Origin: Candidatus Nomurabacteria bacterium RIFCSPLOWO2_12_FULL_40_42
GTDB taxonomy: Bacteria > Patescibacteriota > Minisyncoccia > Phycocordibacterales > UBA9973
Reading direction: 5' to 3'
Length of the DNA stretch: 64,000 nucleotides
Assembly: GCA_001786195.1 (NCBI GenBank)
Contig: MFVS01000008.1
Span: forward strand, 21,057-85,056
Shown here piece after piece: positions 3,029 through 35,509 of the stretch. The notes under the pieces are model-generated. The model was not told the DNA's origin. It ran no database searches and saw nothing but the letters and a program-made list of their open reading frames with translations. The translations under genes were made by a program, and so were the position numbers. The stretch's first letter is position 1, and each line of letters starts with the position of its first letter.

Positions 3029-4915
3029 TTAATTATCCAACCCCTGTCTGGTCATTGCCCCCATCACCTCCCCGGCTTCAGCTTCTTCCTTGGCTTTTCT
3101 GTTGGATAGTATTTGCGAAGGGTCGGAGGTAATGATTTGGTCTTCGGTGTACGAAGCGATGATTTTGATGGCCACATGTTTTAAGCCGGCGAAGAAAATT
3201 CCTTCCCCCACTCCGGATTCCAAAAGCAGATATTTTTCTTCATCGGTCAGGTTGAAAGTTTTTTGCAGAATATCTATTGTAGTCGGAGACTGTTTTAATA
3301 ATAATTGGATAGAGGAATTGGTAATGATCGGCACGCCATAAGGAGACTTCATAAAGTCTGCCGCGTCCTGAGTGATGGTGGAAAGGCCAAGATAGTATTT
3401 TCGGCCTCGCTTGGCGATCGAATACAGGAAAGAAGCGGTGTCCTCGGACTTCATCATCCACCAGGCCTCATCTATTACTAGCAGCCTTTTTTTAAGATTC
3501 TTGCGTATAGCGTTCCAAATGTAATGCATGATTATATACATGGCGACCGGTTTCAATTCATCTTCCATGTCGCGGACCGAAAACACAATAAATTTTTTAT
3601 TGATGTCCACATTCGAGGATCGGTTTAAGAAAGTGGCCCAAGAACCTTTGGTGTATTTCGCCAGACGCTGCACGACTGAATCGCTTCCGTCCATTCCCGA
3701 GAGCACCATTTCAAAATCAGAGAGGAGCGGCGGCTCGACATTGGAAAAATTCGATTCCGGGGTGATGTCTTTCATGGCATAAGTTTCAGAAATGGCCCGA
3801 TCCACCATGGAATCTTCCTCGGGAGAGAGCCCTCCCAACATCAGCCGAAAAAGCCCGACCAAGTTTATGGTATTGGATCGAAGCACGTCCTCGGCCGTTT
3901 CATCTTCGCGCGGGATCGGCAGATCAAACGGATTGATATGGTGGTCGGAAGAAAGCGCGATGTTGAAATATCTTCCGCCCACCGCTTCCGACAAGAATTC
4001 GTATTCTTTTTCCGGGTCGATGACGATCACATCGATATCAAACATGAGTGACCTCAAAATTTCCAATTTGGTCGCATAGGATTTTCCCGAACCGGATTTG
4101 GCAAAAGTCACAGAATTATAGTTCTCTAAACTGAATCTGTCGAAGATAACAAGGGATGAATTATGCCGGTTGATGCCATAGAGAATGCCTTTATTGTCGG
4201 TCAAGTCGAAAGAAATAAAGGGGAAAACACTGGATAACGGCTCCGAATTTAATTTTTGGTGGATAGCAAGCAAATCGGTATCGATCGGGATGACACTTTT
4301 GAAACCCGCTTCCTGTTGGAAAAGCGCCGGTTTGATATAGATAAGCTTGGATTCGAGCATGGATTTTATTTCGTTCTCGATCTTGAACAATTCCAAATCG
4401 TTGTCGGCATAAATCGTGATATAAATGCCCACGTCAAACATTTTTTCTTGCGCCTGGATTAAATTGTCGCGCAAGCCCTCGAGGTCGAGGTTCGCGGTAT
4501 CAAGCATCGGGTCGCGCACCATTCCCTTTTTCTCTCGAACATTTATCTGGCTTTGAACTTCGGCTACTTTTTTCTGGAATTGCCGTAGCACCAGCGAAGT
4601 ATCTATCGGATGAATAAATATGGAAATATCAAAAACTTTATCCAGATTGATTATCGGTGAAAACCAATTATCAGTCAGAAATCTTGGATAAGAGATGATA
4701 AAAAATGTGCGGGCGATTTTGTCGCCCAAGTTTATGGATTTCGATTCGATCTTTAGGGCTGACGGCGCTATCACATCCTGGAGTTCCAAGCTGGCGGATT
4801 CGTAAATTTGTTCCGGCAGTACCGCCAAAGTGGAAGCCTGGGCGCCACTTTCTCCATCCGAATTGAGTCCGCTGGCTTTATTTGTTTTTTTAAATAATTT
4901 GTCTAAAATGGACAT
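3029..4915 (-). CDS. virB4: VirB4/TrbE-family T4SS ATPase (ATPase portion)
   Basis: 628 aa. Walker A AKSGSGKSYA, then LLVIDEAWWMM and ITQDAADF motifs typical of VirB4/TraC/CagE ATPases. Confidence 0.8.
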   Translation of the reverse strand: MSILDKLFKKTNKASGLNSDGESGAQASTLAVLPEQIYESASLELQDVIAPSALKIESKSINLGDKIARTFFIISYPRFLTDNWFSPIINLDKVFDISIFIHPIDTSLVLRQFQKKVAEVQSQINVREKKGMVRDPMLDTANLDLEGLRDNLIQAQEKMFDVGIYITIYADNDLELFKIENEIKSMLESKLIYIKPALFQQEAGFKSVIPIDTDLLAIHQKLNSEPLSSVFPFISFDLTDNKGILYGINRHNSSLVIFDRFSLENYNSVTFAKSGSGKSYATKLEILRSLMFDIDVIVIDPEKEYEFLSEAVGGRYFNIALSSDHHINPFDLPIPREDETAEDVLRSNTINLVGLFRLMLGGLSPEEDSMVDRAISETYAMKDITPESNFSNVEPPLLSDFEMVLSGMDGSDSVVQRLAKYTKGSWATFLNRSSNVDINKKFIVFSVRDMEDELKPVAMYIIMHYIWNAIRKNLKKRLLVIDEAWWMMKSEDTASFLYSIAKRGRKYYLGLSTITQDAADFMKSPYGVPIITNSSIQLLLKQSPTTIDILQKTFNLTDEEKYLLLESGVGEGIFFAGLKHVAIKIIASYTEDQIITSDPSQILSNRKAKEEAEAGEVMGAMTRQGLDN

Positions 4916-8227: not shown

Positions 8228-10813
8228 TTAAGGATGTGGAGGGTGTGGAGGATGTTCAGGAGGACGACCACCTCCAATAAATGCTTCTGCTAAAGCTGCA
8301 GCTGCTAAGTCTCTGCCAAATTCTGCTCCTGGCGTATGTACGTCAGTTTTTTCTTCTTTTGGTTTTACTCCCATTCTTATTGCATGAGCAGACTCTCTAC
8401 GCGCGGCTTTGTTCCAAGGCCAGGCAAATGAATTTTCAATATCATTGGCAAATGCTCTTATTCTTTTCTCTCCAACTTCTTTTACCTTATGTTGAAGATC
8501 TGGAATTATTTTATCTTCAAGTTGATCCATTGATCTTCCGCCACCATGTTTGGCAGAAGCAAGTGCTGCCTTTGCTACTGCTGCTGCATTTTCCAATTCC
8601 GAAGCGTTGGAGGCTCCGGCTGTAATAGCTGCCAATGCCGCCGCCTCTGCTCTTTCCGCCTCTGCCTCTAATTCAGAGACCCTATTAACATCTCCTGTTG
8701 CCTTCTTTATCTTATCCTTGAATTCTTTTAACGTTGCCAGTTTATCATTTGCTGCTTTCTTAGCTGCAACTTTAGCAGGATCATTAACATCCATAGCCAT
8801 AGCCGATGCCAAAGTGTTTTGCTTAGCAGGATCGGTATCAGCCATTGCTCTTGCAGCACTTATGGCAGCTTCTCTAGTTGCAACCTTATTAGAATCAGTA
8901 GTATCTCTTGAATTTAAGTCACTTGCATTTTTTCTTGCCGACTCAATCTTTTTATTAAGTTGCTCAAGTTCGTGTGAACTTTCCAAGGAGAGGGCCTGAA
9001 TCGCGTCTTCAGCTGCATTTAATTCCTGTTTCTCTTTTTCGCCTTCCTTGGTTTTAAGTCCTGCAGCTCTCTTCTTTCTCTTTTCGTCTCGTCCCTTCAA
9101 ATCAGCCATGTATCCACCCTCTTCCGTTGAAAGGTATTTTCCTCCTCCTAAGTTGACCCCGGTTATTTTAGATACAGCACCAAAAGCTCCGCCAAACGCA
9201 CCCTTTCTTATATCAAAACTCGAACCCGCAAATCCTCCCTTGCCATCATCTCCACCTGCGATAGTTCTTCCCATACTAGCCAAACGTCTCTGGGCCCAAT
9301 TGCCCTTTGTTTCCCAATCTTGCATCTTTGTACTGTCAAAAACTTTTTTACCTAAATGCCCAGCAGTTCCCTGCAGGACTTTGGCCCCAACCATCATCGT
9401 TCCGCCGGTCGCTGCGCCGATGGCAAGTCCGGTGACCACCTTACCAATTCCTGATGCTATCTCTGCAATTTTTCCTCCTGCCGCTTTAGCAAAGTGGATC
9501 GCTTTGAGAAGCAGAAACATGCTTATTAATGCCGGCAATATTAAAGACAATATATACGGGATAAATCCTTCACCAGTCAGAAGTTTCATTTTCGAATATT
9601 CCTTCAATAACATAAATATCAAATACATAAAAAACATAAAAACTGGAGCCATAAAAGACATTTTAATCAAACGTTTATGCCAGGCGTTCCAGCCCAGATA
9701 TTCCACACCTTGAAGTGCCGGTAAGGCGAAAGACATAAAAGCGAAAGGGGCAAAAATGATCAAAGCCCAAAGTTCGAGCAACCTGCCCAAAAATGCGGCT
9801 CCGGCGACGAAAAAAGCGAAGGCAGCAAAGAACATGATAGATCCAGAGATGATCATTAATCCAAGTGTCAACCCGAAAGGAAGGTTTTCTTTTGATTCTG
9901 TTTTTTCGCCTAATACCGTTATTGTTTTCAGTTTTTTAAGTGTAGGAAAGTCTACCAGCTTAGTAGGGTTAAATGCCTCAACTATCTCGCCAGATATATC
10001 TTTTTCTGTACTGCCTGCAGATTGATCATACACTTTTTGTCTTCCTGGGTTAACTTTCAGTTTATTATAGAAAACCAAAGCCAGAATATTAGAAGAATCT
10101 ATAACCACTTTTGTGAAAAACATTGAAAAGTTTATAAGTAAAGCCATGATTATTACCCAAACTACCGCCTTTTTAGTTTCATGTCCTATCCCTAAAATTG
10201 TTTGAATCGCTACATAAAGTAAAATAAGGATGAAAAAAATATTAGAAAGATCACGCACTACAGCCCAAGCGCTAGATACGAAACCCGAGTCGGTCAAGAC
10301 CGCTAGCTTATTTATCCCAACAGACACCATGGCATTAAAGAAGTTTGCAGACAATATAAGCAGTAAATTTGGGAGTTGGAAGTAAGTGTAGTAAACAATC
10401 CATAAAAAACATCCCTTCACAAGTTGAGATAAATCAAAAGTAGCTCCGCAACCGTTATTAATTTCTCCTCTAAATGTATCAGCTTCTGTTTTTGGTGTTG
10501 TTCCTGTCGCCCCTGCTGCTAGGGTTGCTGGTGTTGCTGGCGCAGGATTGCTAGGGCTGTATGGAGTAAAAATACCTATACCACGACAGTTCTCTGGAGT
10601 GGAGGGGAAAGGTGCTATGTATGTTATTCCACTCGTGCGCTGACAAGTTCCCGTTGCTACCACAGGTGTTGGTGTAGGTGCTGGTTGCGCCTCCACTTGT
10701 TTCCCTCCCGGCCCAAAAAGTCCGACGAGGATAAGCAGTATCAATCCCGTTAGAAGCAATTTACGAATAGTTGGGGATTTTGTTGTATTTCGTGTTAAAT
10801 TATTTTGTGACAT
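8228..10813 (-). CDS. VirB6/TrbL-like polytopic membrane protein with long Ala/Lys-rich coiled-coil tail
   Basis: 861 aa. Signal peptide, Pro/Thr-rich linker, at least 6 predicted TM helices in the middle, then a C-terminal coiled-coil region ending in PPEHPPHPPHP. Heads the T4SS-like operon. Confidence 0.45.
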   Translation of the reverse strand: MSQNNLTRNTTKSPTIRKLLLTGLILLILVGLFGPGGKQVEAQPAPTPTPVVATGTCQRTSGITYIAPFPSTPENCRGIGIFTPYSPSNPAPATPATLAAGATGTTPKTEADTFRGEINNGCGATFDLSQLVKGCFLWIVYYTYFQLPNLLLILSANFFNAMVSVGINKLAVLTDSGFVSSAWAVVRDLSNIFFILILLYVAIQTILGIGHETKKAVVWVIIMALLINFSMFFTKVVIDSSNILALVFYNKLKVNPGRQKVYDQSAGSTEKDISGEIVEAFNPTKLVDFPTLKKLKTITVLGEKTESKENLPFGLTLGLMIISGSIMFFAAFAFFVAGAAFLGRLLELWALIIFAPFAFMSFALPALQGVEYLGWNAWHKRLIKMSFMAPVFMFFMYLIFMLLKEYSKMKLLTGEGFIPYILSLILPALISMFLLLKAIHFAKAAGGKIAEIASGIGKVVTGLAIGAATGGTMMVGAKVLQGTAGHLGKKVFDSTKMQDWETKGNWAQRRLASMGRTIAGGDDGKGGFAGSSFDIRKGAFGGAFGAVSKITGVNLGGGKYLSTEEGGYMADLKGRDEKRKKRAAGLKTKEGEKEKQELNAAEDAIQALSLESSHELEQLNKKIESARKNASDLNSRDTTDSNKVATREAAISAARAMADTDPAKQNTLASAMAMDVNDPAKVAAKKAANDKLATLKEFKDKIKKATGDVNRVSELEAEAERAEAAALAAITAGASNASELENAAAVAKAALASAKHGGGRSMDQLEDKIIPDLQHKVKEVGEKRIRAFANDIENSFAWPWNKAARRESAHAIRMGVKPKEEKTDVHTPGAEFGRDLAAAALAEAFIGGGRPPEHPPHPPHP

Positions 10814-12442: not shown

Positions 12443-14659
12443 TCAATTCACCGTAATATTAACCAGGAAGGTCTGCGGATGCGCGATCGATGCATCTTTG
12501 ACTAGTACCGAAGTTATGCCGGCTGTCCTATAATTGGTGATTCGGAGAGTTTTTCTGTTGATTATTTGAGCAGTGGCGATTCTGGAATCAGGCTCCGTTT
12601 GGATGCTATAATTTCCCATTCCGCCGGTGATAGTTAGGTCTCTAAAACAATAATTGTAAGTACTGTAAAGGCCGCAAATTCTGGTTGTATAATTCGATAG
12701 ACTTACGACCAAAGGATCGGTGACGATAATGCTAGTGTTATCGAATTTGGTGGCCAGGGATGAATCTTTGACCATGACTTGGGTCTCCCCTTGCTTCTTG
12801 CCAGTGATTGTAAGAGTGTCGAAATTTGGTCCGAGAATCTGAGCCGTTGCTATTTCGGGGTTGAATGTTGTTACGATTTTATAAGGAGCTGTGCCGCCTG
12901 TGATGGGCAGAGAGTTGACAATTGTACCGGTGATTACTGAAATATTTTGCGGTATGTTTAAGGCTCCGCGTTCTGTTGTCGAGATAATGGCGTTCACTCT
13001 GACAGTTTTGGCAGGTGTTGATGAATCTTTTATTTCAATAAAAGTTGATCCAGGCGCGACACCAGTTACAATTAAGTTTTCGCCAGCTAGGCCCGTCACC
13101 GCAACGGATTGATCTGGGTTTGTTAATATGGAATAAGGTTTTTCCCCGCCAGATATGGTGGTGGTGATTGGGTTGTCGGCGATAGTTACAACGCTTGCCG
13201 GAGTGACTGCTAAAACCCCGATAGCATTTATCGCTATATTAACTATGGCAGTGCATTGTGTCGACAGATTTTGCTCTGGGCAGGAAGTTGACGAGTCTCG
13301 AACTTTGACTTGGGTACTTCCTGGAGCTACGCCAGTAATAGAAAGAGTCGGTCCAGACAATCCAGAGACAGAAATTTCCGCTTTTGCCACTCTGTTGTCT
13401 GGTGGAATTAGAATGCTATAAGGCTGTGTACCGCCGGAAATAATTGTTCGAGTCGTCTCGTCAATTCTAGCTGAAACATTTTGTGGAATGCTTAACGGAG
13501 CAGGTGCACCATAGGTCGATGTTCCACTACTTAGAGTTTGGCCATTGTAGCTCCAGTTGTCTGCAGGAGGCGCGGGGCTGACGGTGCTTGCGAGCGCGCT
13601 CAAACCCGTATCCAAAAGTTTATTGATAAGCGCGTCAAAAATAGCTGCCAGGCTGTTACCTAAAGCTCCGTCGAGCGCAGTGGTAAGGAATGGAACGTTG
13701 AGCGCGTTGAATACTTGATTGGCCGCTACCGAGCCGGGAGTAGTCGAGACTAGACCCCCGGGGCAAGTGTTGTTTTTTGTCCATTCTGCCCTAGCCGCAT
13801 TATTTTCTCTTTCCCATTGCAAAGATCCGCTAGCTCCCGGATATTTTTCCGTATCAAAAGGAAGAGGTTTGTAACTCGGCCTCAAAAATTCATTTGCGCC
13901 ATTGTTGTATTTTGGATTGCTGGGGCAGGTTTGCGGAGAAAGAAATCCCAATCCTTGCTGAAGTTTATCTTTTACCATTTGGGCAGGAGTCATAATCGTC
14001 CCCTCCAGGCGACTTGCCAGGTTTTGCTGAATGAGCATGTTGAACCCTAAATAATTATTTTGCGGATACTGGGTGTTAATGAGGAATCCATTCCAACCCC
14101 CGATATTAAAATCATTTCGGTATTGGACCAAGAGGTCGGGGTCATTGATCACTTTGCTTAAAGTATATTGCGCGTTGATTTCGAGCTGGCTTTTGTAACT
14201 GTCTATTACTTGTAATGCGACTTCTTTGCCGAAGGGAAATCGAAAAGTATCGTAGCCGATCATATCCACTAAATTTTTAACTTGCGACTTGGCTATGTCT
14301 CGAAAGAAGGATTCTGGATTTTCCAGAAATAGCGGCGACCCATGAAAACCGGAGTTTATCCAGTTGATTGTGGCTTGGGTCATCTGTGCTAAGAGTCTCT
14401 TGGCAGCTAATTTAAGCAATTGTTCCAGAAGTTTTTGCATCCAACTTTTATTGTCAATAATAGAACTTGTTGTGGTATTAGTTGTTATTATCTTGAGATA
14501 TATTTGAGCTGGGAAATCATTAACCGGCACGCCGATCGGCGCAGTTTCTTGCGCTTCTGCCTTTTTTACCCCAAAAGACGAAAAAATAGCAGGTGTCAGT
14601 ATAGAAATAATCAAAAGACAAGGGATAAATTTTTGAATTATTTTATTTTTTGTTACCAT
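12443..14659 (-). CDS. secreted protein with four tandem Big_2-like Ig repeats
   Basis: 738 aa. Signal/anchor at the N-terminus. The C-terminal third holds 4 repeats of about 50 aa (SGGxxPYSI...ITGVAPGSTxVxVxDSS). Confidence 0.6.
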   Translation of the reverse strand: MVTKNKIIQKFIPCLLIISILTPAIFSSFGVKKAEAQETAPIGVPVNDFPAQIYLKIITTNTTTSSIIDNKSWMQKLLEQLLKLAAKRLLAQMTQATINWINSGFHGSPLFLENPESFFRDIAKSQVKNLVDMIGYDTFRFPFGKEVALQVIDSYKSQLEINAQYTLSKVINDPDLLVQYRNDFNIGGWNGFLINTQYPQNNYLGFNMLIQQNLASRLEGTIMTPAQMVKDKLQQGLGFLSPQTCPSNPKYNNGANEFLRPSYKPLPFDTEKYPGASGSLQWERENNAARAEWTKNNTCPGGLVSTTPGSVAANQVFNALNVPFLTTALDGALGNSLAAIFDALINKLLDTGLSALASTVSPAPPADNWSYNGQTLSSGTSTYGAPAPLSIPQNVSARIDETTRTIISGGTQPYSILIPPDNRVAKAEISVSGLSGPTLSITGVAPGSTQVKVRDSSTSCPEQNLSTQCTAIVNIAINAIGVLAVTPASVVTIADNPITTTISGGEKPYSILTNPDQSVAVTGLAGENLIVTGVAPGSTFIEIKDSSTPAKTVRVNAIISTTERGALNIPQNISVITGTIVNSLPITGGTAPYKIVTTFNPEIATAQILGPNFDTLTITGKKQGETQVMVKDSSLATKFDNTSIIVTDPLVVSLSNYTTRICGLYSTYNYCFRDLTITGGMGNYSIQTEPDSRIATAQIINRKTLRITNYRTAGITSVLVKDASIAHPQTFLVNITVN

Positions 14660-21621: not shown

Positions 21622-21692
21622 TGCGGGATGGGAGAATCGAACTCCCAACATCTGTTTGGAAAACAGAAATTTTACCATTAAACTAATCCCGC
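21622..21692 (-). tRNA. tRNA-Gly(UCC)
   Basis: Reverse complement GCGGGATTAGTTTAATGGTAAAATTTCTGTTTTCCAAACAGATGTTGGGAGTTCGATTCTCCCATCCCGCA folds as a cloverleaf. Anticodon loop TTTCCAA gives anticodon UCC. T-loop TTCGATT. No encoded CCA. Confidence 0.8.
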
Positions 21693-21702
21693 CTCGCATC
21701 AT

Positions 21703-21773
21703 TCGGGCTGCTGGGAGTCGAACCCAGCCTAAATGCTCCCAAAGCACTTGTACAACCGATATACTACAGCCCG
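21703..21773 (-). tRNA. tRNA-Pro(UGG)
   Basis: Reverse complement CGGGCTGTAGTATATCGGTTGTACAAGTGCTTTGGGAGCATTTAGGCTGGGTTCGACTCCCAGCAGCCCGA. Anticodon loop TTTGGGA gives UGG with G37. 7-bp acceptor stem and canonical T-arm. No encoded CCA. Confidence 0.8.
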
Positions 21774-21844
21774 CTTTACTTTAGACCAATCTAATATATC
21801 ATGGTTCTATTTTATTCACCATGACCCTGAGCCTGTCGAACGGG

Positions 21845-22249
21845 TCATAAAATTATATCTTTTACTACTTTTATTTTTGCGCTTCTGTCCTTTAAACTCA
21901 AAAACACCACTAGTAGATCTACTTGCCATTCTTCATCCAGATGTTTCGACAAAATATAAGTTTGAATCGCTCGAGCTAGCCTTTTTAGTTTCCATGGATG
22001 CATATTGTCCTCGGGATGATATTGATCTAAGGTTTCACGATTAACATTCTCCAATGTCTCCCGAGAAACACTTTTTACTTCAATAAAATATATCTTGTTA
22101 TCTTTTTCAGCGACAATATCTATTTCACCCCATTTTTTTGTGTAATTTCTTTCTCTTATTAAAAAGCCGTGTTTCACAAGAAACTTTACTGCTACATTTT
22201 CGCCTATCTCTCCTATTTTTTGTTTTTCTGAAGTGAAAACTTTTGGCAT
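21845..22249 (-). CDS. yraN: YraN/UPF0102-family endonuclease
   Basis: GEIGENVAVKFLVKHGFLIRERNYTKKWGEIDIVAEKDNKIYFIEVKS is the typical YraN PD-(D/E)xK core. Confidence 0.75.
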   Translation of the reverse strand: MPKVFTSEKQKIGEIGENVAVKFLVKHGFLIRERNYTKKWGEIDIVAEKDNKIYFIEVKSVSRETLENVNRETLDQYHPEDNMHPWKLKRLARAIQTYILSKHLDEEWQVDLLVVFLSLKDRSAKIKVVKDIIL

Positions 22250-22477
22250 GGCATTGTGAGTTTCACGAATAACATTCTAAATATGTTTCACATGAAACGT
22301 TTTTATTAAATTTTGTGTCTTTTATATAAATATCCTTATTTATCAACATATTTTGAATAAAATTGTTTTAAAAGACAATCTTCCACTATGTCCTTTATGA
22401 ACATTACTAACATAGTTATCCACAGTTTTTAACAAAAGCTTTATGTAATAAAGGTTTCACTAAAGGACATTATTTTG

Positions 22478-22549
22478 TGCGGCCAAGGAGAATCGAACTC
22501 CTATCTCAACCTTGGCAAGGTCGTGTTATAGCCATTAAACCATGGCCGC
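22478..22549 (-). tRNA. tRNA-Gly(GCC)
   Basis: Reverse complement GCGGCCATGGTTTAATGGCTATAACACGACCTTGCCAAGGTTGAGATAGGAGTTCGATTCTCCTTGGCCGCA. Anticodon loop TTGCCAA gives GCC. No encoded CCA. Confidence 0.8.
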
Positions 22550-22680
22550 AAATTAGTATACGATTCAAAAAAATCAAAATTATTTTTTACATTTTCATTA
22601 TAGTATTTTATTGGAAGTTATGCAATATTTACTTCGGAATTTAATTGTTTTCCGAAGTTTATTGTGTTACAATTAGTGTA

Positions 22681-23208
22681 ATGAAAAAATGTACTAAATG
22701 TAAGAAAGAAAAACCAGCTAATGAATTTAACTTCAAAATAAAGTCTTTAGGATTGCGGCAAGGTCAATGTAAAGAATGCACTAGGTTATTTGTAAAAAAT
22801 CATTATAATAAGAACAAGAGTTATTATTTGAAAAAAGCAAGGAAAAGAAATACCAAACTAGAGTTAGAATTGCTTGAGTATCTTAAAGATTATTTTTTAA
22901 AACATCCTTGCATAGATTGTGGAGAGTCTGATATAACAGTTTTGGAATTTGATCATATGGGGAAAGTCCCAAAATTTAAGGCGGTTTCTTATCTGATGAA
23001 ACATCGCTATAAATTAGAAAAAATCATAGACGAAATTAATAAGTGTGAAGTTAGATGTGCTAATTGTCATAGGAGGAAAACGGCTAAACAATTTAAGTGG
23101 TTAAAAAGTAATAATGCGCTCGTAGCTCAACGGATAGAGCACTTGTCTTCGGAACAAGGGGTTGTGGGTTCGATTCCCTCCGAGCGCACAAAAATAAGGA
23201 TAATATGA
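22681..23208 (+). CDS. HNH endonuclease-like protein; ORF reads through tRNA-Arg
   Basis: N-terminal CxxC...CxxC zinc ribbon, then LEFDHMGKVPKF...VRCANCHRRKT (HNH motif). The frame has no stop until 23208 and runs over the tRNA-Arg gene at 23116-23188, so the true C-terminus is unclear. Confidence 0.55.
   Translation: MKKCTKCKKEKPANEFNFKIKSLGLRQGQCKECTRLFVKNHYNKNKSYYLKKARKRNTKLELELLEYLKDYFLKHPCIDCGESDITVLEFDHMGKVPKFKAVSYLMKHRYKLEKIIDEINKCEVRCANCHRRKTAKQFKWLKSNNALVAQRIEHLSSEQGVVGSIPSERTKIRII
23116..23188 (+). tRNA. tRNA-Arg(UCG)
   Basis: GCGCTCGTAGCTCAACGGATAGAGCACTTGTCTTCGGAACAAGGGGTTGTGGGTTCGATTCCCTCCGAGCGCA. Anticodon loop CTTCGGA gives UCG. One T·T mismatch in the T-stem. No encoded CCA. 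Confidence 0.75.
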
Positions 23209-26638: not shown

Positions 26639-27184
26639 ATGAAACAGCAATCTTCTATCACGGAAACACCAGAGATTTACTTGAGGCTTGAACAATATAG
26701 CGACATTTTTTCCGACTTTGATATACGTCCATATAGAGAACGCGCGCTTTCAATTGATTTCCTTGATGAGATTAAACGGGCGGCGAGTGATAAAGATGGA
26801 AGTGGAATAGAGCTTATGTTGCACATTCCGGAAAAAGATCGCAATGAGGCTGAAGAGGAAGTAATTAAGGAACGCCTAACAACACACTTTAAAAGGCATT
26901 ATCATTTACTCTCGAAAGAAAAAAGACGAGTTATGAAACTTGGTTTAACTATGGTATTTCTAGGTATTATTTCTATGATAGCGGCTACATTGATTATTTT
27001 TAAAGATCCTGCAGACGATTTATTCTTGTCATTTTTGGTTGTTTTCTTAGAGCCGGCAGCGTGGTTTTTGCTCTGGGAAGGGATGGATCAAATAGTGTTT
27101 AACTCGAAGAACATAAACCCAGATTTCAATTTTTATCGCAAGATGTCCAACTCCCGGGGACAAATCCATTTTAAATCGTATTAA
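26639..27184 (+). CDS. hypothetical membrane protein
   Basis: Start moved to ATG 26639 (MKQQSS...) because the track start at 26525 overlaps the convergent upstream gene. Two TM helices near the C-terminus. Confidence 0.45.
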   Translation: MKQQSSITETPEIYLRLEQYSDIFSDFDIRPYRERALSIDFLDEIKRAASDKDGSGIELMLHIPEKDRNEAEEEVIKERLTTHFKRHYHLLSKEKRRVMKLGLTMVFLGIISMIAATLIIFKDPADDLFLSFLVVFLEPAAWFLLWEGMDQIVFNSKNINPDFNFYRKMSNSRGQIHFKSY

Positions 27185-27993
27185 ATTTCAACCAATACTG
27201 GGCAGTGGTCGGAGCCGAGAACTTCGGACAGGATCTCTGCTTTTTTTACTTTTTTCGCCAGTCCGGCGCTCACAAAAATGTAATCAATTCTCCAGCCAAT
27301 GTTTCGCGCTCGGGCATTGGCGAAATGGCTCCACCAAGTGTAATGTCCCGGACCTTTAGTGAAAATTCGAAAAGTGTCCACAAAACCAGCATCAATCATT
27401 TGTTGGATGCCCTCGCGTTCTTCTTTGGTAAACCCTTTTAGTCCTTCATTTTCTTTCGGTCGTGCCAGATCGTCTGGCGTATGGGCCACATTTAGGTCTC
27501 CACAGAAGATAACGGGCTTTCCTGCCCTGAGCGAAGTCGAAGGGTTTTCTAATTCCTTTACATAGGCAAGAAAGGCGGGGTCCCATTGCTTGTGGCGCAA
27601 AGGGATACGGCTCAAATCATCTTTGGCATTGGGTGTGTAGACGGTAACAACATAAAAATCTTTAAATTCGGCAGTAATGACCCGGCCTTCAGTCCTAGGA
27701 TCACCATAAGTATCAGCTACAAGACCAAATTTTTCCGAGATTTTCTCTGGCAAACCAAGAACAATAGAAAGCGGTTTTGTTTTGGTAAAAATGGCAGTGC
27801 CGGAATATCCTTTTTTGACGGCGGAGTTCCAATATTCTTCGTAATCCGGTAAATCGATAGGTGACTGGTGTTGTTCGGCCTTGGTTTCCGGCAGACACAA
27901 AATATCCGGCTGATATTTTTCGACAAACGGCACAAAAAGTCCCTTTTTATGCACTGCCCGTATGCCGTTTACATTCCAACTGATGATTTTCAT
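27181..27993 (-). CDS. xth: exodeoxyribonuclease III
   Basis: MKIISWNVNGIRAVHKKG...LCLPETK...WWSHFANARARNIGWRIDYIFVS...SDHCPV are Xth/APE1 family signatures. Confidence 0.9.
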   Translation of the reverse strand: MKIISWNVNGIRAVHKKGLFVPFVEKYQPDILCLPETKAEQHQSPIDLPDYEEYWNSAVKKGYSGTAIFTKTKPLSIVLGLPEKISEKFGLVADTYGDPRTEGRVITAEFKDFYVVTVYTPNAKDDLSRIPLRHKQWDPAFLAYVKELENPSTSLRAGKPVIFCGDLNVAHTPDDLARPKENEGLKGFTKEEREGIQQMIDAGFVDTFRIFTKGPGHYTWWSHFANARARNIGWRIDYIFVSAGLAKKVKKAEILSEVLGSDHCPVLVEI

Positions 27994-28002
27994 CCGATTA
28001 TT

Positions 28003-28653
28003 TTATTTAGGTTTCTGAAAAAGCGATTCCAATAAGCCTAATTCCACTGGTTTTTTTATGAATTCAATTTCTTGCGAAATTAATGTTAATTTTTTATCAA
28101 AAATCTGCGCCATTTCTTTGTCCTCAAAAAAATGATAGTGAATACCGTGTTTTTCTAGTTCGCCATCCGGTGAAGCTATCGGGGAGAAATTTATAAAATT
28201 TATTGTTTTGCGCGAGAAGGACATATTCAAATAAAATCCTCCGGGCTTTAGCACTCGTCTAATTTCGTCAGCATATTTCGGCCAGTCTTTCTTGTGCAGA
28301 CTCTCCATCAGCCCAAAAGCGCAGACGCCATCGAAGCTGTTGTCCACAAAAGGTAACTTCAAAGCGTCGGCGGTGACAAATTTCAATTTACCCTCCAGCC
28401 CCCAATGTTTTATTTCTCCGTTGACCTTGGACACGATCTGGTCTTCAAAATCAATGCCGATCACCTTGAAGCCCATGTCGGCTAATTGTTTGGCAAAAAG
28501 GCCGCGGCCGCTCCCGACATCCAAGATCGAAGCCCCGGCTGGAAGTTTTTTTATGAGTTTGGTTCCCCGGAGCGGTATGGTTAAAGGCGTCCAGATATCG
28601 GTGCCAGTTGCATAAGCTTTATTAAAATGATCTTTGTGTGCGTGATAATCCAT
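28003..28653 (-). CDS. class I SAM-dependent methyltransferase
   Basis: ILDVGSGRGLFAKQLADMGFKVIGIDFE (motif I). Start taken at in-frame ATG 28651-28653 (MDYHAHKDHF), which sits inside the conserved 15-mer shared with the PrgI gene start. Confidence 0.7.
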   Translation of the reverse strand: MDYHAHKDHFNKAYATGTDIWTPLTIPLRGTKLIKKLPAGASILDVGSGRGLFAKQLADMGFKVIGIDFEDQIVSKVNGEIKHWGLEGKLKFVTADALKLPFVDNSFDGVCAFGLMESLHKKDWPKYADEIRRVLKPGGFYLNMSFSRKTINFINFSPIASPDGELEKHGIHYHFFEDKEMAQIFDKKLTLISQEIEFIKKPVELGLLESLFQKPK

Positions 28654-28848
28654 CCCGTACGAAATTTCATTAAATTGATAAATTGACCCATCCCTTATAC
28701 GAAACTTTTTTAGCAAGATTTCGTACGGGATCCATGGGTGAATTATAACACTGCTTTGTTTTTTAGACTATACGGGAACCAAAGTTTATATCAACCGCTC
28801 ACATTGGAAACCAATCCATCAAGGAGCGGTTTTCATTTTGTGTTATGA

Positions 28849-29146: not shown

Positions 29147-31345
29147 TTATATTAATTTTTTATTATGAAACTTCTTGTGTATATCTCGCAGATGTTTGTC
29201 GGTCACATGGGTGTAGATCTGGGTGGTGCCGATGTTGGCATGGCCGAGCATGGCTTGGACAGAACGGATATCAGCACCGTTGCTTAACAAGTCGGTCGCG
29301 AAGCAATTATGAGAGATAAAGCCATCAGTAATTAAGTTTTCGTATTTATCCACGGCAAAATCATAGACCAATCCTTTATATTTTTGTTTATTAATTTTAT
29401 TAACCCGTAGCCACTGTATATTATTACTTTCAATAAGATTTTCTAAAAAATTTAACCTCTTATCTTTACAATGCGCACCTCGTAAGTATTTTATAATCTT
29501 TTTAAGCACCTCTTTTGTGGGGATAATAGAGGTAGTAGTTCCAACATATCGATATATGTCAATCCCTTCTTCTATTTTAAGATATCGAGCAAAATTATGC
29601 CATTTATTATCAAGTGAATGATAGATGTCTCGCAATATTTCTCTAACTGGAATTTTTTCTCCTTCAAATATATCGTTTGGCGTTGTTTTTTTTAAAGTTG
29701 GAATAATTTTCTTAAATAATTCTTGGTCTGGTTTGTGCAATATCTGTAAATTATACATAACATGATCAATTAATTTTCCACCAGGCAATCTGACTCTTCT
29801 TGATCTAGTGTACAGATGAGAGTCAATGCCAAGAGTAAGTAGCAACATTTGTATATCTTTGAGAAGCATTTTGCTGGTGGAGAAAAATTTTACTGATGAA
29901 CCCTCATTTCCTTCAGCATCATAATAGCCGGCTATAAAATGCGCGATCGTCGCTTTATTTTGGGAAAAAAGAGACTTCGGGACCCTTCGGAATGGCGATT
30001 TTTCTGTAATACCAATTTTTCTTAAGTATGCTATAAATGATTTTGAATAAAAATTTAAAAGATAACTATTCACACTGTTTTTTTTTATTATTGTTGGCTG
30101 ATGTTTGTATTCAGATACTATTATGTTTTTATAATGATTAACGAAAGACAGATTTTTATCCGCGATAATTACACCCCTCCTTTTTTCACTAATAGTTCCA
30201 TCTCCTAAAATATATCCAATAAGACGCCACTTATCTTTACTTTCTGATTTATTGGAACTATCCATTCTTGCTTTTCTTATGCCAGCCACGAATTGTCCAA
30301 TCTTTAGATTTTTTGCGAAAACTTCCTCGACTCCATTTATCCCAATAGTAAAAAATAGGTGATCCTTTGTGGTTGAGATTGTATATCCATTGGCTGAAAT
30401 ATTGATCAAGTCAACAAATCGATGATTAGTTTTTTGAATAATTTTGGATTTTATAGTTTTACCTTTTTTAAAGTCTACCGCGGTGATGTTTTTTGAGGAT
30501 GATTCGAACAGTTCCTTGGCTGACATTATTGTGTGTGGTAAGAAGATTAATGTGTCTGGATGAAGACAATGCCTTATCACGTGCGGAGTTACTTTTTTCG
30601 AAATACCGGCGATGGTGGCGTATCTTTTGACAATTCTTTCTATTGACCGGCGAGTCAGACCTTCATCGGTCGGTTTCTTTGAAATTTCATCAGCGATTTT
30701 TACAAACAGAGCGTCGGACATATCCTTGCGCAGGGCGAGGTAAGCTTTGACCGCAGCCTTGGCTTCATCGGAGAGGAAAACTACCCGCACTTTACCTCCT
30801 TTGCCGCGAATGGGAAATTCATCTAAACGCAAATCTAGATCATTGGTAAGCGAACAGAGTTCGGAAACCCGCAGACCGGTGGAAAAAAGCATCTCCATGA
30901 TGGCTTTATCCCGAGCTTTCCTTTCCGGATTCTTTTCTTTGTTGGGAGCATCCAAAAGCCGTTTCAATTCTTCCTGCGAAATGACATCAATTTGTCTTTC
31001 ACCGACTTTCGCTAGTTCGATTTGATCGGCAGGTAGGGAAGTGATATTTCTTTTTGCCAGAAATTTAAGAAAACTTCGCAGGGCGATCATGTAATAATTT
31101 TGAGTTTTCTTTTTTATGGTCTCTCCGGTTGCGCGATTGTTTCCGGTTGTCTGACGATTAAGCCAAATGCGAAAATCTCGGACTTTTGCATCTGTGATTT
31201 CGCTGGGGTCAGTAACTTTTGTTTGTTCGAGAAAGACGGTTAAGTAATGATCATAATTTTCTACAGTTCTAATGGCGCGACCTTTTTCGATCTCGACATA
31301 TTCCAAAAATTGAGTTTTGAGTTGTTTGAGGGAGGCCATAAACAT
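29147..31345 (-). CDS. XerC/XerD-family tyrosine recombinase interrupted by an intein
   Basis: N-terminal SAM-like domain. Catalytic LRVSEL...HVIRH|[intein]|[34 protein letters not shown]. Extein residues R, HxxRH and Y are all present once the intein is removed. Confidence 0.8.
29306..30568 (-). mobile_element. intein (421 aa) with LAGLIDADG homing-endonuclease domain inside the recombinase gene
   Basis: Begins CLHPDTLIF immediately after HVIRH. Ends ...FISHN followed by the +1 Cys of CFATDLL. Internal LAGLIDADG-like motifs [11 protein letters not shown] and [10 protein letters not shown]. Inserted exactly at the conserved HxxRH-S/C site. Confidence 0.75.
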
Positions 31346-31432
31346 ATTTTAACACAATACTTGCCCCGCCATGGCGGGGTTAATGCGACACGGCTGGGCC
31401 TGTCCCGTACCAAGCTACGCTTTGGTTCGGGA

Positions 31433-31461
31433 TTGCAATTTGGCCCACTTTATGCTAATAT
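31433..31461 (+). promoter_or_regulatory. sigma70-like promoter for rpsO
   Basis: TTGCAA, 17-nt spacer, TAATAT. AAGGA Shine-Dalgarno 6 nt upstream of ATG 31468. Confidence 0.5.
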
Positions 31462-31467
31462 CAAGGA

Positions 31468-31731
31468 ATGTTAGCAACCAAGAAAAAGCAAGGAATTATC
31501 AAGAAAAATCAGATTCACGACAAGGATACTGGTTCCCCAGAGGTGCAAGTGGCCGTGATTTCTGCGGCGATTGATGAGCTGGCGAAACATTTAAAGAAGC
31601 ACAAAAAGGATAATCATTCTCGCCGAGGGCTTATCAAGATGGTGGCCGATCGACGCACTCATTTGAAATATTTAGAGCGCACCAGCAAAACTCGTTACAA
31701 CGCCCTCATGAAGAAAATCGAATTGGTTTAG
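31468..31731 (+). CDS. rpsO: 30S ribosomal protein S15
   Basis: DTGSPEVQVAVISAAIDELAKHLKKHKKDNHSRRGLIKMVADRRTHLKYL is a near-consensus S15. Confidence 0.92.
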   Translation: MLATKKKQGIIKKNQIHDKDTGSPEVQVAVISAAIDELAKHLKKHKKDNHSRRGLIKMVADRRTHLKYLERTSKTRYNALMKKIELV

Positions 31732-31775
31732 ATATTAAAATTCTTTCTTGGCATACTTTTTATAAAGCAATCTAT

Positions 31776-31793
31776 CTGGCGGTGCTCCGCCAG
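31776..31793 (+). terminator. hairpin downstream of rpsO (possible terminator)
   Basis: CTGGCGG-TGCT-CCGCCAG, a 7-bp perfect stem, 45 nt after the rpsO stop. It is not followed by a U-tract, hence low confidence. Confidence 0.3.
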
Positions 31794-31876
31794 CGAACTG
31801 CTCGGCTCGTCAGCCTGCGCAAGGCTTTCTAAAAAGTACGCCTGCAACGAATTTTAATATCTGCTATAATAAACAC

Positions 31877-32389
31877 ATGACAGTCATAAAACATAAAGAG
31901 CAAAGAGTTGGAGTTTTTATTGATACCCAAAATCTATATCACAGCGCTCGGAATTTATATAAGGCGCGAGTAAATTTCGGCACGGTTTTGAAAGACGCGG
32001 TGGCGGGGCGAAAGCTAGTGCGGGCGGTGGCGTATGTTATCACCACCGAAGCCGGCGACGAGAAGAATTTCTTTGAGGCCTTGACCAAGCTCGGCATCGA
32101 AACTAAAACAAAAGATTTGCAAATTTTTGCCGGTGGAGCAAAAAAAGCGGATTGGGATGTCGGGCTCGCAGTGGATGTTATGAAAATGGCGAGCAAGCTG
32201 GATGCGGTGATAATAGTATCCGGAGATGGAGATTTTATTCCTCTGGTGCAGTATTTACAAAGTTATTTGGGGGTACAAGTGGAAGTCGTTTCTTTCGGGC
32301 AGTCAACTTCCGGCAAGTTGCGCGAGGTGGTAGATGATTTTGTGGATCTCTCCGAAAATCCGAGAAAATATTTGATGGGGGTTAAATAG
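31877..32389 (+). CDS. NYN/LabA-like domain protein
   Basis: VGVFIDTQNLYHSA...AVIIVSGDGDFIPLVQYLQSYLGVQVEVVSF is the NYN (LabA/limkain) nuclease-fold signature. Confidence 0.7.
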   Translation: MTVIKHKEQRVGVFIDTQNLYHSARNLYKARVNFGTVLKDAVAGRKLVRAVAYVITTEAGDEKNFFEALTKLGIETKTKDLQIFAGGAKKADWDVGLAVDVMKMASKLDAVIIVSGDGDFIPLVQYLQSYLGVQVEVVSFGQSTSGKLREVVDDFVDLSENPRKYLMGVK

Positions 32390-32508: not shown

Positions 32509-34284
32509 ATGCAAATCGATGAAGAGCAGTTCAAGAAATTTATTTTAGAAGGAGGACTGGTTTCCAAAAAAGATCTGGACTCGGCCATCAAGGTGGCCGA
32601 GGCAAAGAAGCAAAAGATTGGAAACATTTTACTAAGTGAAGGAAAAATATCAGAAACAGATTTGAAACGAACGGAGGCTTTTGTTTTAGGGATTCCTTTT
32701 GTCAGTTTACTTAATCAGAAGATTGATTTTTCAGTGCTCTCTCTCATTCCGGAGCCGATCGCCCGCAATGACAACATTGTGGCTTACACCAAAAGCGAGC
32801 ACGGGCTTGAAGTGGCCATGCTTGACGTCGATGATTTGCCGGTGATTGATTTCATCAAGAAGCGCTCCGGGCTGAAAATTTTGCCTCGACTCACCGATAG
32901 CGCTTCGATCAAGGCGGTCTTGATGCAATATCGGCAAAGTTTGACTTTCGAATTCCAGAACATTATCCAAAAAGAATCGAATACCATCGGTAAGGCGGCG
33001 AGTGAAGAGGACCAGCCGCAGGCAGGCGAAAAGGTAGCCGAAAAGTCCGAGAAAGAACTGAAAGAAATGGCGGAAGATTTGCCGGTGGTCAAGATCGTGG
33101 ATTCCCTGATTGTTCACGCGATTTTGCAAAATGCCTCGGATATTCATATCGAGCCGGGGGAGCGGGAGCTTACGGTGCGTTACAGGATCGACGGTATTTT
33201 ACACGATGCCATGGTCTTGGACAAAAATGCCGGCGCGGGAATCACGGCGCGCATCAAAGTGCTTTCGAACTTGAAGCTAGATGAAAAAAGACTGCCGCAG
33301 GACGGTCGATTTAAAAAAGAACAAGATGGAGAGAAAATTTCCTTCCGTGTTTCCACCTTGCCTACCTTTTTCGGAGAAAAAACCGTGATGAGAATTCTGA
33401 AAGAAAATGCGCATGGGTTTTCGCTGGAGACTCTCGGCTTTCATGGCGAAGCTTTGGAGCGAATTCACAATTCCCTCAAACAAAAAACGGGGATGGTGCT
33501 AGCCACTGGGCCGACCGGAAGCGGAAAGACCACGACGCTTTACACCATGCTAGATATTTTGAACAAGCCGGAGGTGAATATTTCAACCGTCGAAGATCCG
33601 ATTGAGTATCAGATGCCGCGGGTCAACCAAACCCAGGTCAAGCCGGAAATCGGATTATCTTTTGCCAATGGGCTTCGTTCGCTTCTGCGCCAAGACCCGG
33701 ACATCATCATGGTGGGCGAGATCCGCGACGGCGAGACGGCGGGGCTTGCGGTCAATGCTTCCCTTACCGGACACTTGGTGCTCTCAACTATTCACACCAA
33801 TTCCGCCGCAGGAGCTATTCCGCGATTGATAGACATGGGCGTGGAGCCTTTCCTCATTACGGCGACGGTCAAAACAATTATCGCCCAGAGATTGGTGCGC
33901 CGGCTTACACCAAATAAGGAAAAATATTTTTTGTCGCCGGCGGAAATAAAAAATTTGGCGAAAATTGTGGATTTGGACCGGATGCTTTCACTGTTCAAAG
34001 AAGAAAAATTAATCGGCACCAAAGACACCTGGGATAAAATTCCTTTTTATAAAGCAGTCAAGTCGAGCGAGTTTGAAGACGGATATTCCAATCGTATCGG
34101 CATGCATGAAGTGCTCTATGTCAACTCGGCTATCAAGGAGATGATCCTCGCGGGCAAGTCCCAAGACGACATCGAGATCCAGGCCAAGAAAGACGGAATG
34201 ATGACGATGCTCGAAGACGGAGTGTATCAGGCGGTCTTGGGCGTGACGACTCTCGAAGAAGTGTTCCGAGTGGTTTCGGAGTAA
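32509..34284 (+). CDS. pilB: type IV pilus assembly ATPase PilB / GspE family
   Basis: N-terminal GSPII_E_N-like domain. Walker A LATGPTGSGKTTTLYTML, Asp box, His box TIHTNSAAGAIPRL. Confidence 0.9.
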   Translation: MQIDEEQFKKFILEGGLVSKKDLDSAIKVAEAKKQKIGNILLSEGKISETDLKRTEAFVLGIPFVSLLNQKIDFSVLSLIPEPIARNDNIVAYTKSEHGLEVAMLDVDDLPVIDFIKKRSGLKILPRLTDSASIKAVLMQYRQSLTFEFQNIIQKESNTIGKAASEEDQPQAGEKVAEKSEKELKEMAEDLPVVKIVDSLIVHAILQNASDIHIEPGERELTVRYRIDGILHDAMVLDKNAGAGITARIKVLSNLKLDEKRLPQDGRFKKEQDGEKISFRVSTLPTFFGEKTVMRILKENAHGFSLETLGFHGEALERIHNSLKQKTGMVLATGPTGSGKTTTLYTMLDILNKPEVNISTVEDPIEYQMPRVNQTQVKPEIGLSFANGLRSLLRQDPDIIMVGEIRDGETAGLAVNASLTGHLVLSTIHTNSAAGAIPRLIDMGVEPFLITATVKTIIAQRLVRRLTPNKEKYFLSPAEIKNLAKIVDLDRMLSLFKEEKLIGTKDTWDKIPFYKAVKSSEFEDGYSNRIGMHEVLYVNSAIKEMILAGKSQDDIEIQAKKDGMMTMLEDGVYQAVLGVTTLEEVFRVVSE

Positions 34285-34291
34285 AAATAAT

Positions 34292-35509
34292 ATGCTTTTT
34301 TTATATAAGGCAAAATCTAAAACGGGGGAAATTTTTGAAAGCGCGATGGACGCTCCCGACCGTTATTCGCTGGCGAAAGAGATAAAATCTCACGGAGATT
34401 TTCCTCTGTCTATTGCGGAGAAAAATCAATTTTTTACGGATTTAAAATCTCTCTTTCAGAATTTTTTTACGAAAGTCAGCGTCAATGAACAGATTATTTT
34501 TACTAAAAATCTAAGCGGAATGCTCAAGGCCGGGCTATCTTTGTATCGGGCTCTGTCGGTTTTGAAAAAGCAGACCCAAAATTCTAAATTGAATTCTATT
34601 TTAACTTCTCTGTCTGAAGAAATAAATTCAGGCGGGACACTTTCGGAAGGGCTGGGTAAATTCCCAAATGTTTTTTCCAAACTTTTTGTATCAATAGTAA
34701 AGGCAGGCGAGGAGTCCGGTAATCTCGCGGGAGCGCTTTCGGATCTCGGGATAAATTTAGAGAAAGCCCATTCGCTGACCAAGAAAATACGCGGCGCCCT
34801 TATTTATCCGGGCATCATTCTCTCGGCCATGGTGGTTATTGGGGTTTTAATGTTTGCCTTTGTGGTGCCGACTTTGGCCGGAACTTTTAAAGAGCTCGGT
34901 GTGACCTTGCCGCTTTCCACCCGCATTCTGATTTTTGCCGGTAATTTTTTCTCGAATCACTTGATTTTGACCTTTGTGATTATTATTGGAACAGCCTTTG
35001 GCTTGTTCTCGCTTTTTCGCGCTAAATTTGCTGCAAAGTATATTGATTACATTCTTATCCGCATTCCAGTCATCGGAATTTTAGCCAAAGAATTGAATAC
35101 CGCCCGCACTGCCCGCACCATGTCATCACTTCTCCTTGCGGGGGTTTCAATCATCCGCGCGGTGGAAATTACAACTGACGTGGTGCAAAATATTTATTAT
35201 AAAAAAGTCTTAGCGGACGCCACTATCTCAATCGAAAAAGGAGCTCCGTTTTCTAAAACTTTTGCCGACAACAATAAGCTTTACCCGGTAATGATGTCGG
35301 AGATGATCCAAGTCGGGGAAGAAACCGGAAAATTGTCGGATATGCTGCTCGAGATCGCTTTGTTTTATGAAGGAGAAATTGAAAATAAAACTAAGAATCT
35401 TTCTACGATTATCGAGCCGGTTTTAATGGTTGTCATCGGCGCCGGAGTTGGATTTTTCGCGATTTCGATGATCTCGCCGCTTTATTCAATTTTGGGCAAT
35501 ATAGAATAG
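34292..35509 (+). CDS. pilC: type IV pilus inner-membrane platform protein PilC (GspF family)
   Basis: Two T2SSF repeats (...GLSLYRALSVL...; ...GAPFSKTFADNNKLYPVMMSEMIQVGEETGKL), 3 TM helices. Confidence 0.85.
   Translation: MLFLYKAKSKTGEIFESAMDAPDRYSLAKEIKSHGDFPLSIAEKNQFFTDLKSLFQNFFTKVSVNEQIIFTKNLSGMLKAGLSLYRALSVLKKQTQNSKLNSILTSLSEEINSGGTLSEGLGKFPNVFSKLFVSIVKAGEESGNLAGALSDLGINLEKAHSLTKKIRGALIYPGIILSAMVVIGVLMFAFVVPTLAGTFKELGVTLPLSTRILIFAGNFFSNHLILTFVIIIGTAFGLFSLFRAKFAAKYIDYILIRIPVIGILAKELNTARTARTMSSLLLAGVSIIRAVEITTDVVQNIYYKKVLADATISIEKGAPFSKTFADNNKLYPVMMSEMIQVGEETGKLSDMLLEIALFYEGEIENKTKNLSTIIEPVLMVVIGAGVGFFAISMISPLYSILGNIE

Follow-up and report, generated by a model that had tools for sequence, protein, structure and literature searches.

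A probable splicing and homing LAGLIDADG intein at the active site of a Xer-type tyrosine recombinase in Candidatus Nomurabacteria

The window analysed here is a stretch of 64,000 nucleotides from Candidatus Nomurabacteria bacterium RIFCSPLOWO2_12_FULL_40_42 (assembly GCA_001786195.1, contig MFVS01000008.1, positions 21,057 to 85,056 of the forward strand), a tiny groundwater bacterium of the Patescibacteria, or Candidate Phyla Radiation (CPR). A chromosomal gene for a Xer-type tyrosine recombinase was identified in this window, with a class-1 intein containing a LAGLIDADG homing endonuclease inserted in frame into its catalytic site. The intein is very probably a canonical one that is able both to splice and to home. 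From the position of the insertion we infer that recombinase activity depends on splicing.

Structure of the interrupted gene

The precursor gene and its parts were located as follows.

29147..31345, minus strand: intein-interrupted Xer-type tyrosine recombinase precursor gene, 732 codons plus stop, product of 732 amino acids (aa)
30569..31345, minus strand: N-extein, aa 1-259, covering the N-terminal SAM-like domain and the catalytic domain up to three quarters of its length, ending ...HVIRH
29306..30568, minus strand: intein, aa 260-680, a HINT splicing domain split by the LAGLIDADG homing endonuclease and a helical region
30530..30568, minus strand: block A, Cys1 = Cys260, the predicted first nucleophile (TIGR01445)
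30350..30388, minus strand: block B, T-x-x-H = T326-K-D-H329
30188..30229, minus strand: LAGLIDADG motif 1, predicted catalytic Asp382 (PF14528)
29906..29938, minus strand: LAGLIDADG motif 2, predicted catalytic Glu478 (PF14528)
29306..29371, minus strand: blocks F and G, with Asp662 (block F), penultimate His679 and terminal Asn680 (TIGR01443)
29147..29305, minus strand: C-extein, aa 681-732 plus stop, with Cys681 (+1 nucleophile), His-II H702 (LGH) and catalytic Tyr711 (IYTH)

The frame of the precursor was open throughout its 732 codons, and the start of the database copy (cluster P0001) was placed two codons downstream of that in the window. The insert of 421 aa begins with CLHPDT and ends with ...FISHN. 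It is flanked by ...VTPHVIRH on one side and CFATDLL on the other, with both junctions in frame and perfect splice motifs. Without the intein the junction DNA reads ...CCGCACGTGATHMGNCAY followed directly by KSNTTYGCNACCGAY..., and the insertion point lies between the two. An initial annotation, made from the sequence alone, had proposed an insert of 421 aa at 29306-30568, running from Cys1 to the His-Asn before Cys+1, with two LAGLIDADG-like blocks. These limits were exact to the base, and both blocks were found, conserved and matched by PF14528.

As profile evidence, the matches of the precursor to intein, LAGLIDADG and integrase models are far beyond chance. Pfam gave Intein_splicing (4.8e-19), LAGLIDADG_3 (PF14528, 1e-16) in two stretches, and a Phage_integrase match (PF00589, 1.1e-35) that was split by the insert. 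Values of 5.4e-20 for Intein_splicing and 3.2e-17 for the two LAGLIDADG_3 stretches were also obtained with Pfam. In NCBIfam, intein_Nterm (TIGR01445) was matched by residues 260-333 with 29.1 bits against a curated cut-off of 24.5, and intein_Cterm (TIGR01443) by residues 660-681, also above the curated cut-off.

Conservation of single residues was counted in an alignment of 118 intein-bearing homologues. Cys1 and the His of block B were kept in all 118, and the block B motif started with Thr in 77 of them and with Ser in 41. The block F residue Asp662 and the terminal Asn680 were also present in 118/118, and the penultimate His679 in 117/118. The +1 residue, Cys681 in the window, was Ser in 104 homologues and Cys in 14. 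For the endonuclease, position 382 was Asp in 116 of the 118, while position 478 was Glu in 113 and Asp in 5. Blocks A, B, F and G, on whose presence in profiles the proposed intein would stand or fall, were thus all recovered and conserved together with both LAGLIDADG motifs. The precursor has the marks of a class-1 intein, which are Cys1, TxxH, the block F Asp, His-Asn with the following nucleophile, the HINT fold and colinear intein-free homologues, and those of a single-chain two-motif LAGLIDADG enzyme, which are two acidic motifs and the alpha-beta-beta-alpha-beta-beta-alpha core fold.

For the folds, 77 sequences were used to build an AlphaFold model of the precursor, which was searched with Foldseek against the PDB. 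The mean predicted local distance difference test score (pLDDT) was 84.5, with values above 90 throughout the intein and a confidently modelled N-extein. The top matches were the TliVMA intein (7qss, 1.3e-23), PI-PfuI (1dq3), the PhoVMA intein, PI-PkoII (2cw7) and PI-SceI (1ef0), followed by XerA (5hxy), XerD (1a0p), IntI4 and XerH, and then by I-DmoI and I-Tsp061I, which are free-standing LAGLIDADG enzymes (target-normalised TM-scores 0.59-0.72). A search of the PDB with the intein sequence gave weak matches alone, with E no better than 5e-5. The C-extein of the precursor model (residues 682-732, 29150..29302) had pLDDT <50 and was not confidently docked on the catalytic domain. As modelled, this undocked state is compatible with an inactive precursor and proves nothing.

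In the proposed mechanism the 732-aa precursor would have no assembled recombinase active site, with R-K-H-R on one side and His-II and Tyr 421 residues away on the other. Splicing would start with an N-S acyl shift at Cys260, continue with trans-thioesterification to Cys681 and cyclisation of Asn680, and be completed by an S-N shift. The products would be a Xer recombinase of 311 aa, in which the HVIRH-CFATDLL segment is normal, and a free endonuclease of 421 aa. The endonuclease would cut intein-free Xer alleles at the sequence encoding the conserved motif, and repair from an intein-bearing copy would then result in homing.

The window comes from a metagenome-assembled genome (MAG), and a related short contig (L087, described below) looks chimeric or recombinant exactly at the insertion site, so that an assembly error, in which an unrelated fragment with an intein became joined to a recombinase gene, has to be considered. 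Such an artefact is hardly credible here. Cluster P0001, identical to the window protein at 100%, is represented by 36 contigs of several independent assemblies and sources, and therefore the structure of the precursor gene is not an assembly artefact. Its members include GenBank KKR62798.1 and OGI62042.1, come from Candidatus Nomurabacteria or Parcubacteria MAGs, and are variously labelled 'hypothetical protein', 'tyrosine recombinase XerC' or 'XerD'. In addition, the architecture recurs in at least 118 diverged homologues, the model position of the intein included, and the in-frame junctions with their perfect splice motifs also speak against a chimera.

The recombinase and its intein-free alleles

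Two Pfam domains were present in the N-extein, PF02899 (residues 12-99) and PF00589 (residues 121-260). The spliced extein of 311 aa, made by in silico removal of the 421 intein residues, matched PF00589 over model positions 2-172 of 172 (3.8e-42). It also matched XerD (TIGR02225) over positions 2-289 of 290 (5.8e-73; 245.7 bits, cut-off 329.6), XerC (TIGR02224) over positions 2-292 of 295 (236.5 bits, cut-off 335.15), and XerA_Arch (NF040815) over positions 2-261 of 263, where 233.3 bits exceeded the cut-off of 220. Because the extein scores under the equivalog cut-offs of XerC and XerD, its name was kept at 'Xer-type', which on these profile scores is the right level, and 'XerC' or 'XerD' specifically is unsupported. 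The name given by NCBI to the intein-free homologues is 'site-specific tyrosine recombinase/integron integrase'.

The spliced extein could be aligned to Escherichia coli XerD (1a0p) from residue 8 to 290 (8.7e-39) with no gap over the junction, where sPHVIRH-CFATDLL of the extein stands opposite SPHVLRH-AFATHLL of XerD. Further sequence matches in the PDB were XerA, a XerD-FtsK fusion, IntI4 and XerH. The rejoined extein halves were therefore colinear with the XerD, XerC and XerA profiles as well as with the XerD crystal sequence over the junction, as a true intein would require.

The catalytic residues R159 (Arg-I), K182 (Lys), H255 (His-I) and R258 (Arg-II) lie on the N-extein, and H702 (His-II) and Y711 on the C-extein. 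All six residues of this R-K-H-R-H-Y set were invariant in the 77-sequence alignment. The insertion point is directly behind the His that succeeds Arg-II in HxxRH, so the view of the initial annotation that the intein sits between HxxRH and the next S/C and splits the catalytic site held, with R159, K182, H255 and R258 separated from H702 and Y711. Neither a second Xer gene nor a second intein was found in the 64-kb window, in which hidden Markov models built from the family matched this open reading frame (ORF) alone.

If the insertion did not splice, the recombinase would be inactivated and the gene would be a decaying pseudogene. Nothing direct favours such a loss of function, apart from the undocked and low-confidence C-extein in the precursor model, and it is very unlikely in view of the uninterrupted 732-codon frame, the conservation of the splicing residues and of the six catalytic residues across homologues down to 43% identity, and the strong purifying selection on both extein and intein. 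In addition, the 64-kb window holds no second Xer gene that could compensate for the loss.

The spliced extein retrieved thousands of insert-free recombinases, about 300-320 aa in length. The best intein-free matches were P0121 (95% identity) and P0122 (92%), the latter from another Candidatus Nomurabacteria MAG. In the window the precursor gene is flanked by genes for ribosomal protein S15 (31468..31731) and a NYN protein (31877..32389) on one side and by genes for a methyltransferase (28003..28716) and ExoIII (27181..27993) on the other. P0122 has the same neighbours around it, rpsO (S15) and NYN to one side and the genes for the methyltransferase and ExoIII to the other. The locus of the intein-bearing protein P0002 also has rpsO-NYN and ExoIII as neighbours, with no methyltransferase listed there. 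Because these neighbours are common to the window, P0122 and P0002, the gene occupies one and the same orthologous housekeeping locus of the chromosome, whether the intein is present or absent, and is not the integrase of a mobile element. The intein-free allele expected in related genomes was thus found at the orthologous locus of close relatives, with extein identities of 92-95%.

Among intein-free Xer genes of Patescibacteria, the residue after HxxRH was Ser in 56/79, Cys in 10/79 and Thr in 4/79, and therefore most intein-free alleles are pre-adapted to host the intein. In the window's own clade, intein-free alleles mostly have Val or Cys at +1, and the closest one has Met. Cys+1 of the window probably came with the intein or was its precondition, because its closest intein relatives have it too. 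The alleles with Val or Met at +1 might be resistant to the endonuclease, or non-permissive for a functional insertion.

A further intein-free sequence of this locus is a contig of 1.8 kb (L087:1-1799, JGI 3300009031), which was compared with window positions 30579..32112 and 29195..29302. Over 1534 nt, from S15 through the N-extein, it matches the window at 99.9% identity, and this identity ends 11 nt before the insertion point. Its C-extein has about 67-74% nucleotide identity to the window and is also an outlier among all members of the clade, and its 3' flank is unrelated to that of the window. Either recombination with a diverged intein-free allele, at the endonuclease target, really replaced the intein and the 3' end in this contig, or the contig was assembled chimerically at the conserved motif.

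Distribution, selection and mobility of the intein

At least 219 clusters at 90% identity were matched by the full-length precursor at E <1e-10. The 120 clusters listed all combine integrase, intein and LAGLIDADG, and are 43-75% identical to the query. Their hosts are Nomura-, Azam-, Wolfe-, Kaiser- and Moranbacteria and other Patescibacteria. The intein alone was searched exhaustively with phmmer against 1.84 billion representatives at 50% identity, and 28 matches were obtained at E <1e-30. Every one of those tested was a tyrosine recombinase, and the intein lay at the same position of the Pfam model, about 134-135 of 172. Below a clear drop in score came other inteins, about 30% identical, whose hosts are a radical-SAM/B12-binding protein, RadA and MCM. 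Because this drop separates the Xer inteins from those in other hosts, the Xer intein is, by its sequence similarity, a distinct allele family comprising about 30 clusters at 50% identity, in Patescibacteria as sampled here.

Four of the intein-bearing recombinases (P0257, P0262, P0265 and P0266), with lengths of 600-650 aa, have the Phage_integrase domain starting from residue 10-17. Either they are without the N-terminal SAM-like domain or their gene calls are truncated. The position of the intein in their catalytic domain is unchanged.

In a scan with one genome per species, in which the query included the intein and the best 80 of at least 595 Xer hits were considered, the intein form (about 2.2 kb) occurred at 1/80 Xer loci, that of a Kaiserbacteria MAG (L007). 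The matches listed in the extein-only search omit the window's own P0001, and the occupancy was taken from the genome scan instead. Occupancy by the intein is low, on the order of a percent, because a query containing the intein should rank intein-bearing loci high, yet only one was seen among the 80. No relative of the intein was found when viral contigs were scanned with it, which is a weak negative, as a single-protein query finds close relatives only.

Signs of both descent and transfer were present in the family. Between the window and P0002 the inteins are 83% identical in protein and 79% in DNA, and the exteins 65% at both levels. The extein of the window and that of the intein-free P0122 are 92% identical in protein and 79% in DNA. 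The nearest neighbour by intein was also the nearest by extein in 35/117 intein-bearing proteins. Since the two sets of identities correlate (r = 0.59 over the 117 proteins) yet the nearest neighbours coincide in so few, the sequences indicate a family history mixed of vertical descent and transfer, much of it vertical. The GC content of the intein was below that of the extein in all three loci compared, with 31.6% vs 43.6% in the window, 34% vs 50% in L004 (the locus of P0002) and 48% vs 55% in L007. In part the intein GC content follows that of the host genome, suggesting that the intein was ameliorated once transferred. In addition, the codons flanking the intein, CAT before it and TGC TTC GC after it, are identical in the window and L004, while the intein-free locus L001 has CAC and GTT TTT GC at the same place. 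The shared codons are consistent with a short co-conversion tract.

Selection was estimated as the ratio of nonsynonymous to synonymous substitutions (dN/dS, Nei-Gojobori) against L004, the closest intein for which DNA was obtained. The ratio was about 0.065 over the full length of the intein and 0.08 over the endonuclease core. As dS is almost saturated between the two inteins, both values are rough. Judged from dN/dS together with the conservation of residues, selection has clearly preserved the predicted splicing and endonuclease functions.

Some results weigh against a splicing and homing intein in a Xer recombinase, namely this saturation of dS, the correlation of intein and extein identities, and a low-confidence AlphaFold model of the spliced extein (pLDDT 58), for which the alignment of 29 close homologues was shallow and too similar; the missed XerC and XerD equivalog cut-offs in NCBIfam would be added to them if the host were named 'XerC' or 'XerD'. 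Because of that low-confidence model, the fold of the spliced product rests on colinearity with solved Xer structures.

The same correlation would favour an intein that is splicing-competent and no longer mobile, passed on by vertical inheritance, with an endonuclease that is inactive or kept for another reason. Such an immobile intein would also fit a family old enough to form about 30 clusters at 50% identity, and the lack of a phage or viral carrier in the scan of viral contigs with the intein, which reaches close relatives only. It is nevertheless unlikely, since both LAGLIDADG acidic residues are near-invariant, the endonuclease core has a dN/dS of about 0.08, the P0002 intein is 83% identical where the exteins are 65%, close relatives are without the intein and about 1/80 of the species-representative loci are occupied, and the intein GC content is 12 points under that of the extein. 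This copy is, on the sequence evidence, probably a still mobile intein, and homing would explain the rare and patchy distribution of the family as well as the mismatch between intein and extein relatedness.

Genomic context, related systems and significance

Other features of the window were as follows.

32509..35509, plus strand: PilB-like T2SSE ATPase (591 aa) and platform protein T2SSF (405 aa), type IV pilus or type II secretion, after S15-NYN
8228..10813, minus strand: ORF of 861 aa with no Pfam match at E <=1e-5, in a region where GC skew is strongly negative (-0.17)
3029..4915, minus strand: TraG-like P-loop domain protein
12443..14659, minus strand: protein of 738 aa, its sole match a pilus-formation N-terminal domain
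57608..59350, plus strand: Pif1-family helicase with a C-terminal helix-turn-helix domain
21622..23188, both strands: four clustered tRNA genes, Rfam gathering-score matches

The TraG-like protein (3029..4915) and the pilus-domain protein (12443..14659) may be linked to conjugation or pili. The Rfam scan of the window gave the four tRNAs only, with no rRNA genes or introns. In loci L001 and L004 a PNPase gene stands where the window has T2SSE and T2SSF, so that synteny is only partly conserved.

The closest known relatives in structure are the TliVMA and PhoVMA inteins (7qss, 7qst), PI-PfuI (1dq3), PI-PkoII (2cw7) and PI-SceI (1vde, 1ef0), with Foldseek E from 1.3e-23 to 1e-10. They have the same HINT domain, two-motif LAGLIDADG endonuclease and helical region, share the chemistry of Cys1, TxxH, the block F Asp and terminal His-Asn with Cys/Ser, and likewise occupy a highly conserved active-site motif of their host. 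They differ in sequence, with 9-19% identity to the Xer intein, and in host, which is V-ATPase, ribonucleotide reductase or DNA polymerase, whereas here it is a tyrosine recombinase in a CPR bacterium. On the side of the host protein, the spliced extein shares the two-domain layout and the R-K-H-R-H-Y set with E. coli XerD (1a0p), archaeal XerA (5hxy, NF040815) and XerH (5jjv) and is colinear with them from end to end, and its locus is a housekeeping one beside rpsO. It differs in that it falls short of the XerC and XerD equivalog cut-offs and passes the XerA-type model only.

In engineered split-intein Cre and phiC31 integrase (PMC3973285, PMC6868429), activity is likewise obtained only after splicing rejoins inactive parts, as would be the case for the Xer intein. 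The engineered systems use synthetic trans-splicing at other positions, and some are serine integrases, whereas here a natural cis-splicing intein is found at the border of HxxRH and S/C of a tyrosine recombinase, and selfish mobility, not regulation, would be the reason for its presence. The LAGLIDADG endonucleases of rRNA insertions in CPR bacteria (PMC11270868) belong to the same superfamily and the same radiation and likewise have conserved targets, but they are removed at the RNA level, and the Xer intein would be removed at the protein level.

To our knowledge, the Xer proteins described so far are without an intein. No description of a natural intein in a Xer or other tyrosine recombinase was found in the searchable full-text literature, which yielded engineered split-intein recombinases only, nor in the main intein surveys outside the supplements of the Novikova survey. 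For CPR homing endonucleases, the searchable literature discusses rRNA insertions (PMC11270868) and not inteins. Inteins typically occupy conserved motifs of DNA-handling enzymes (PMC4760082). The initial annotation had called a site-specific recombinase a less usual host, which is right as far as the searchable literature goes but is not conceptually surprising, given that preference for such motifs. The sequences have been public since about 2015-2016, judged by accession series, and JGI automatic product names already include 'site-specific recombinase XerD/intein/homing endonuclease'. What appears new is the host protein and the insertion site, the mechanism of the intein and of the recombinase being already known.

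The intein could also be more than a selfish passenger, and we regard this as improbable. Because it splits, at the active site, the sole Xer-type recombinase seen in the window, splicing could gate recombination and give post-translational control of chromosome-dimer resolution or site-specific recombination in ultra-small bacteria. The Cys1/Cys+1 pair of the window allele could, by analogy with known conditional inteins, act as a redox-sensitive trap. The Val/Met +1 alleles could in turn be a form of host 'immunity', in which the endonuclease target is altered and an uncorrected invasion is lethal.

With this intein, site-specific tyrosine recombinases of the Xer family join the natural hosts of inteins, with a new site directly behind HxxRH with the catalytic Arg-II. 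As a rule, inteins are found in those active-site motifs of DNA-handling enzymes that are most conserved, and the present case follows this rule and extends it, while no concept of intein or recombinase function is changed. An apparently still mobile intein family is documented in the Candidate Phyla Radiation. In addition, the naturally tolerated insertion point in a tyrosine recombinase could guide the design of intein-gated Cre- or Xer-like tools.

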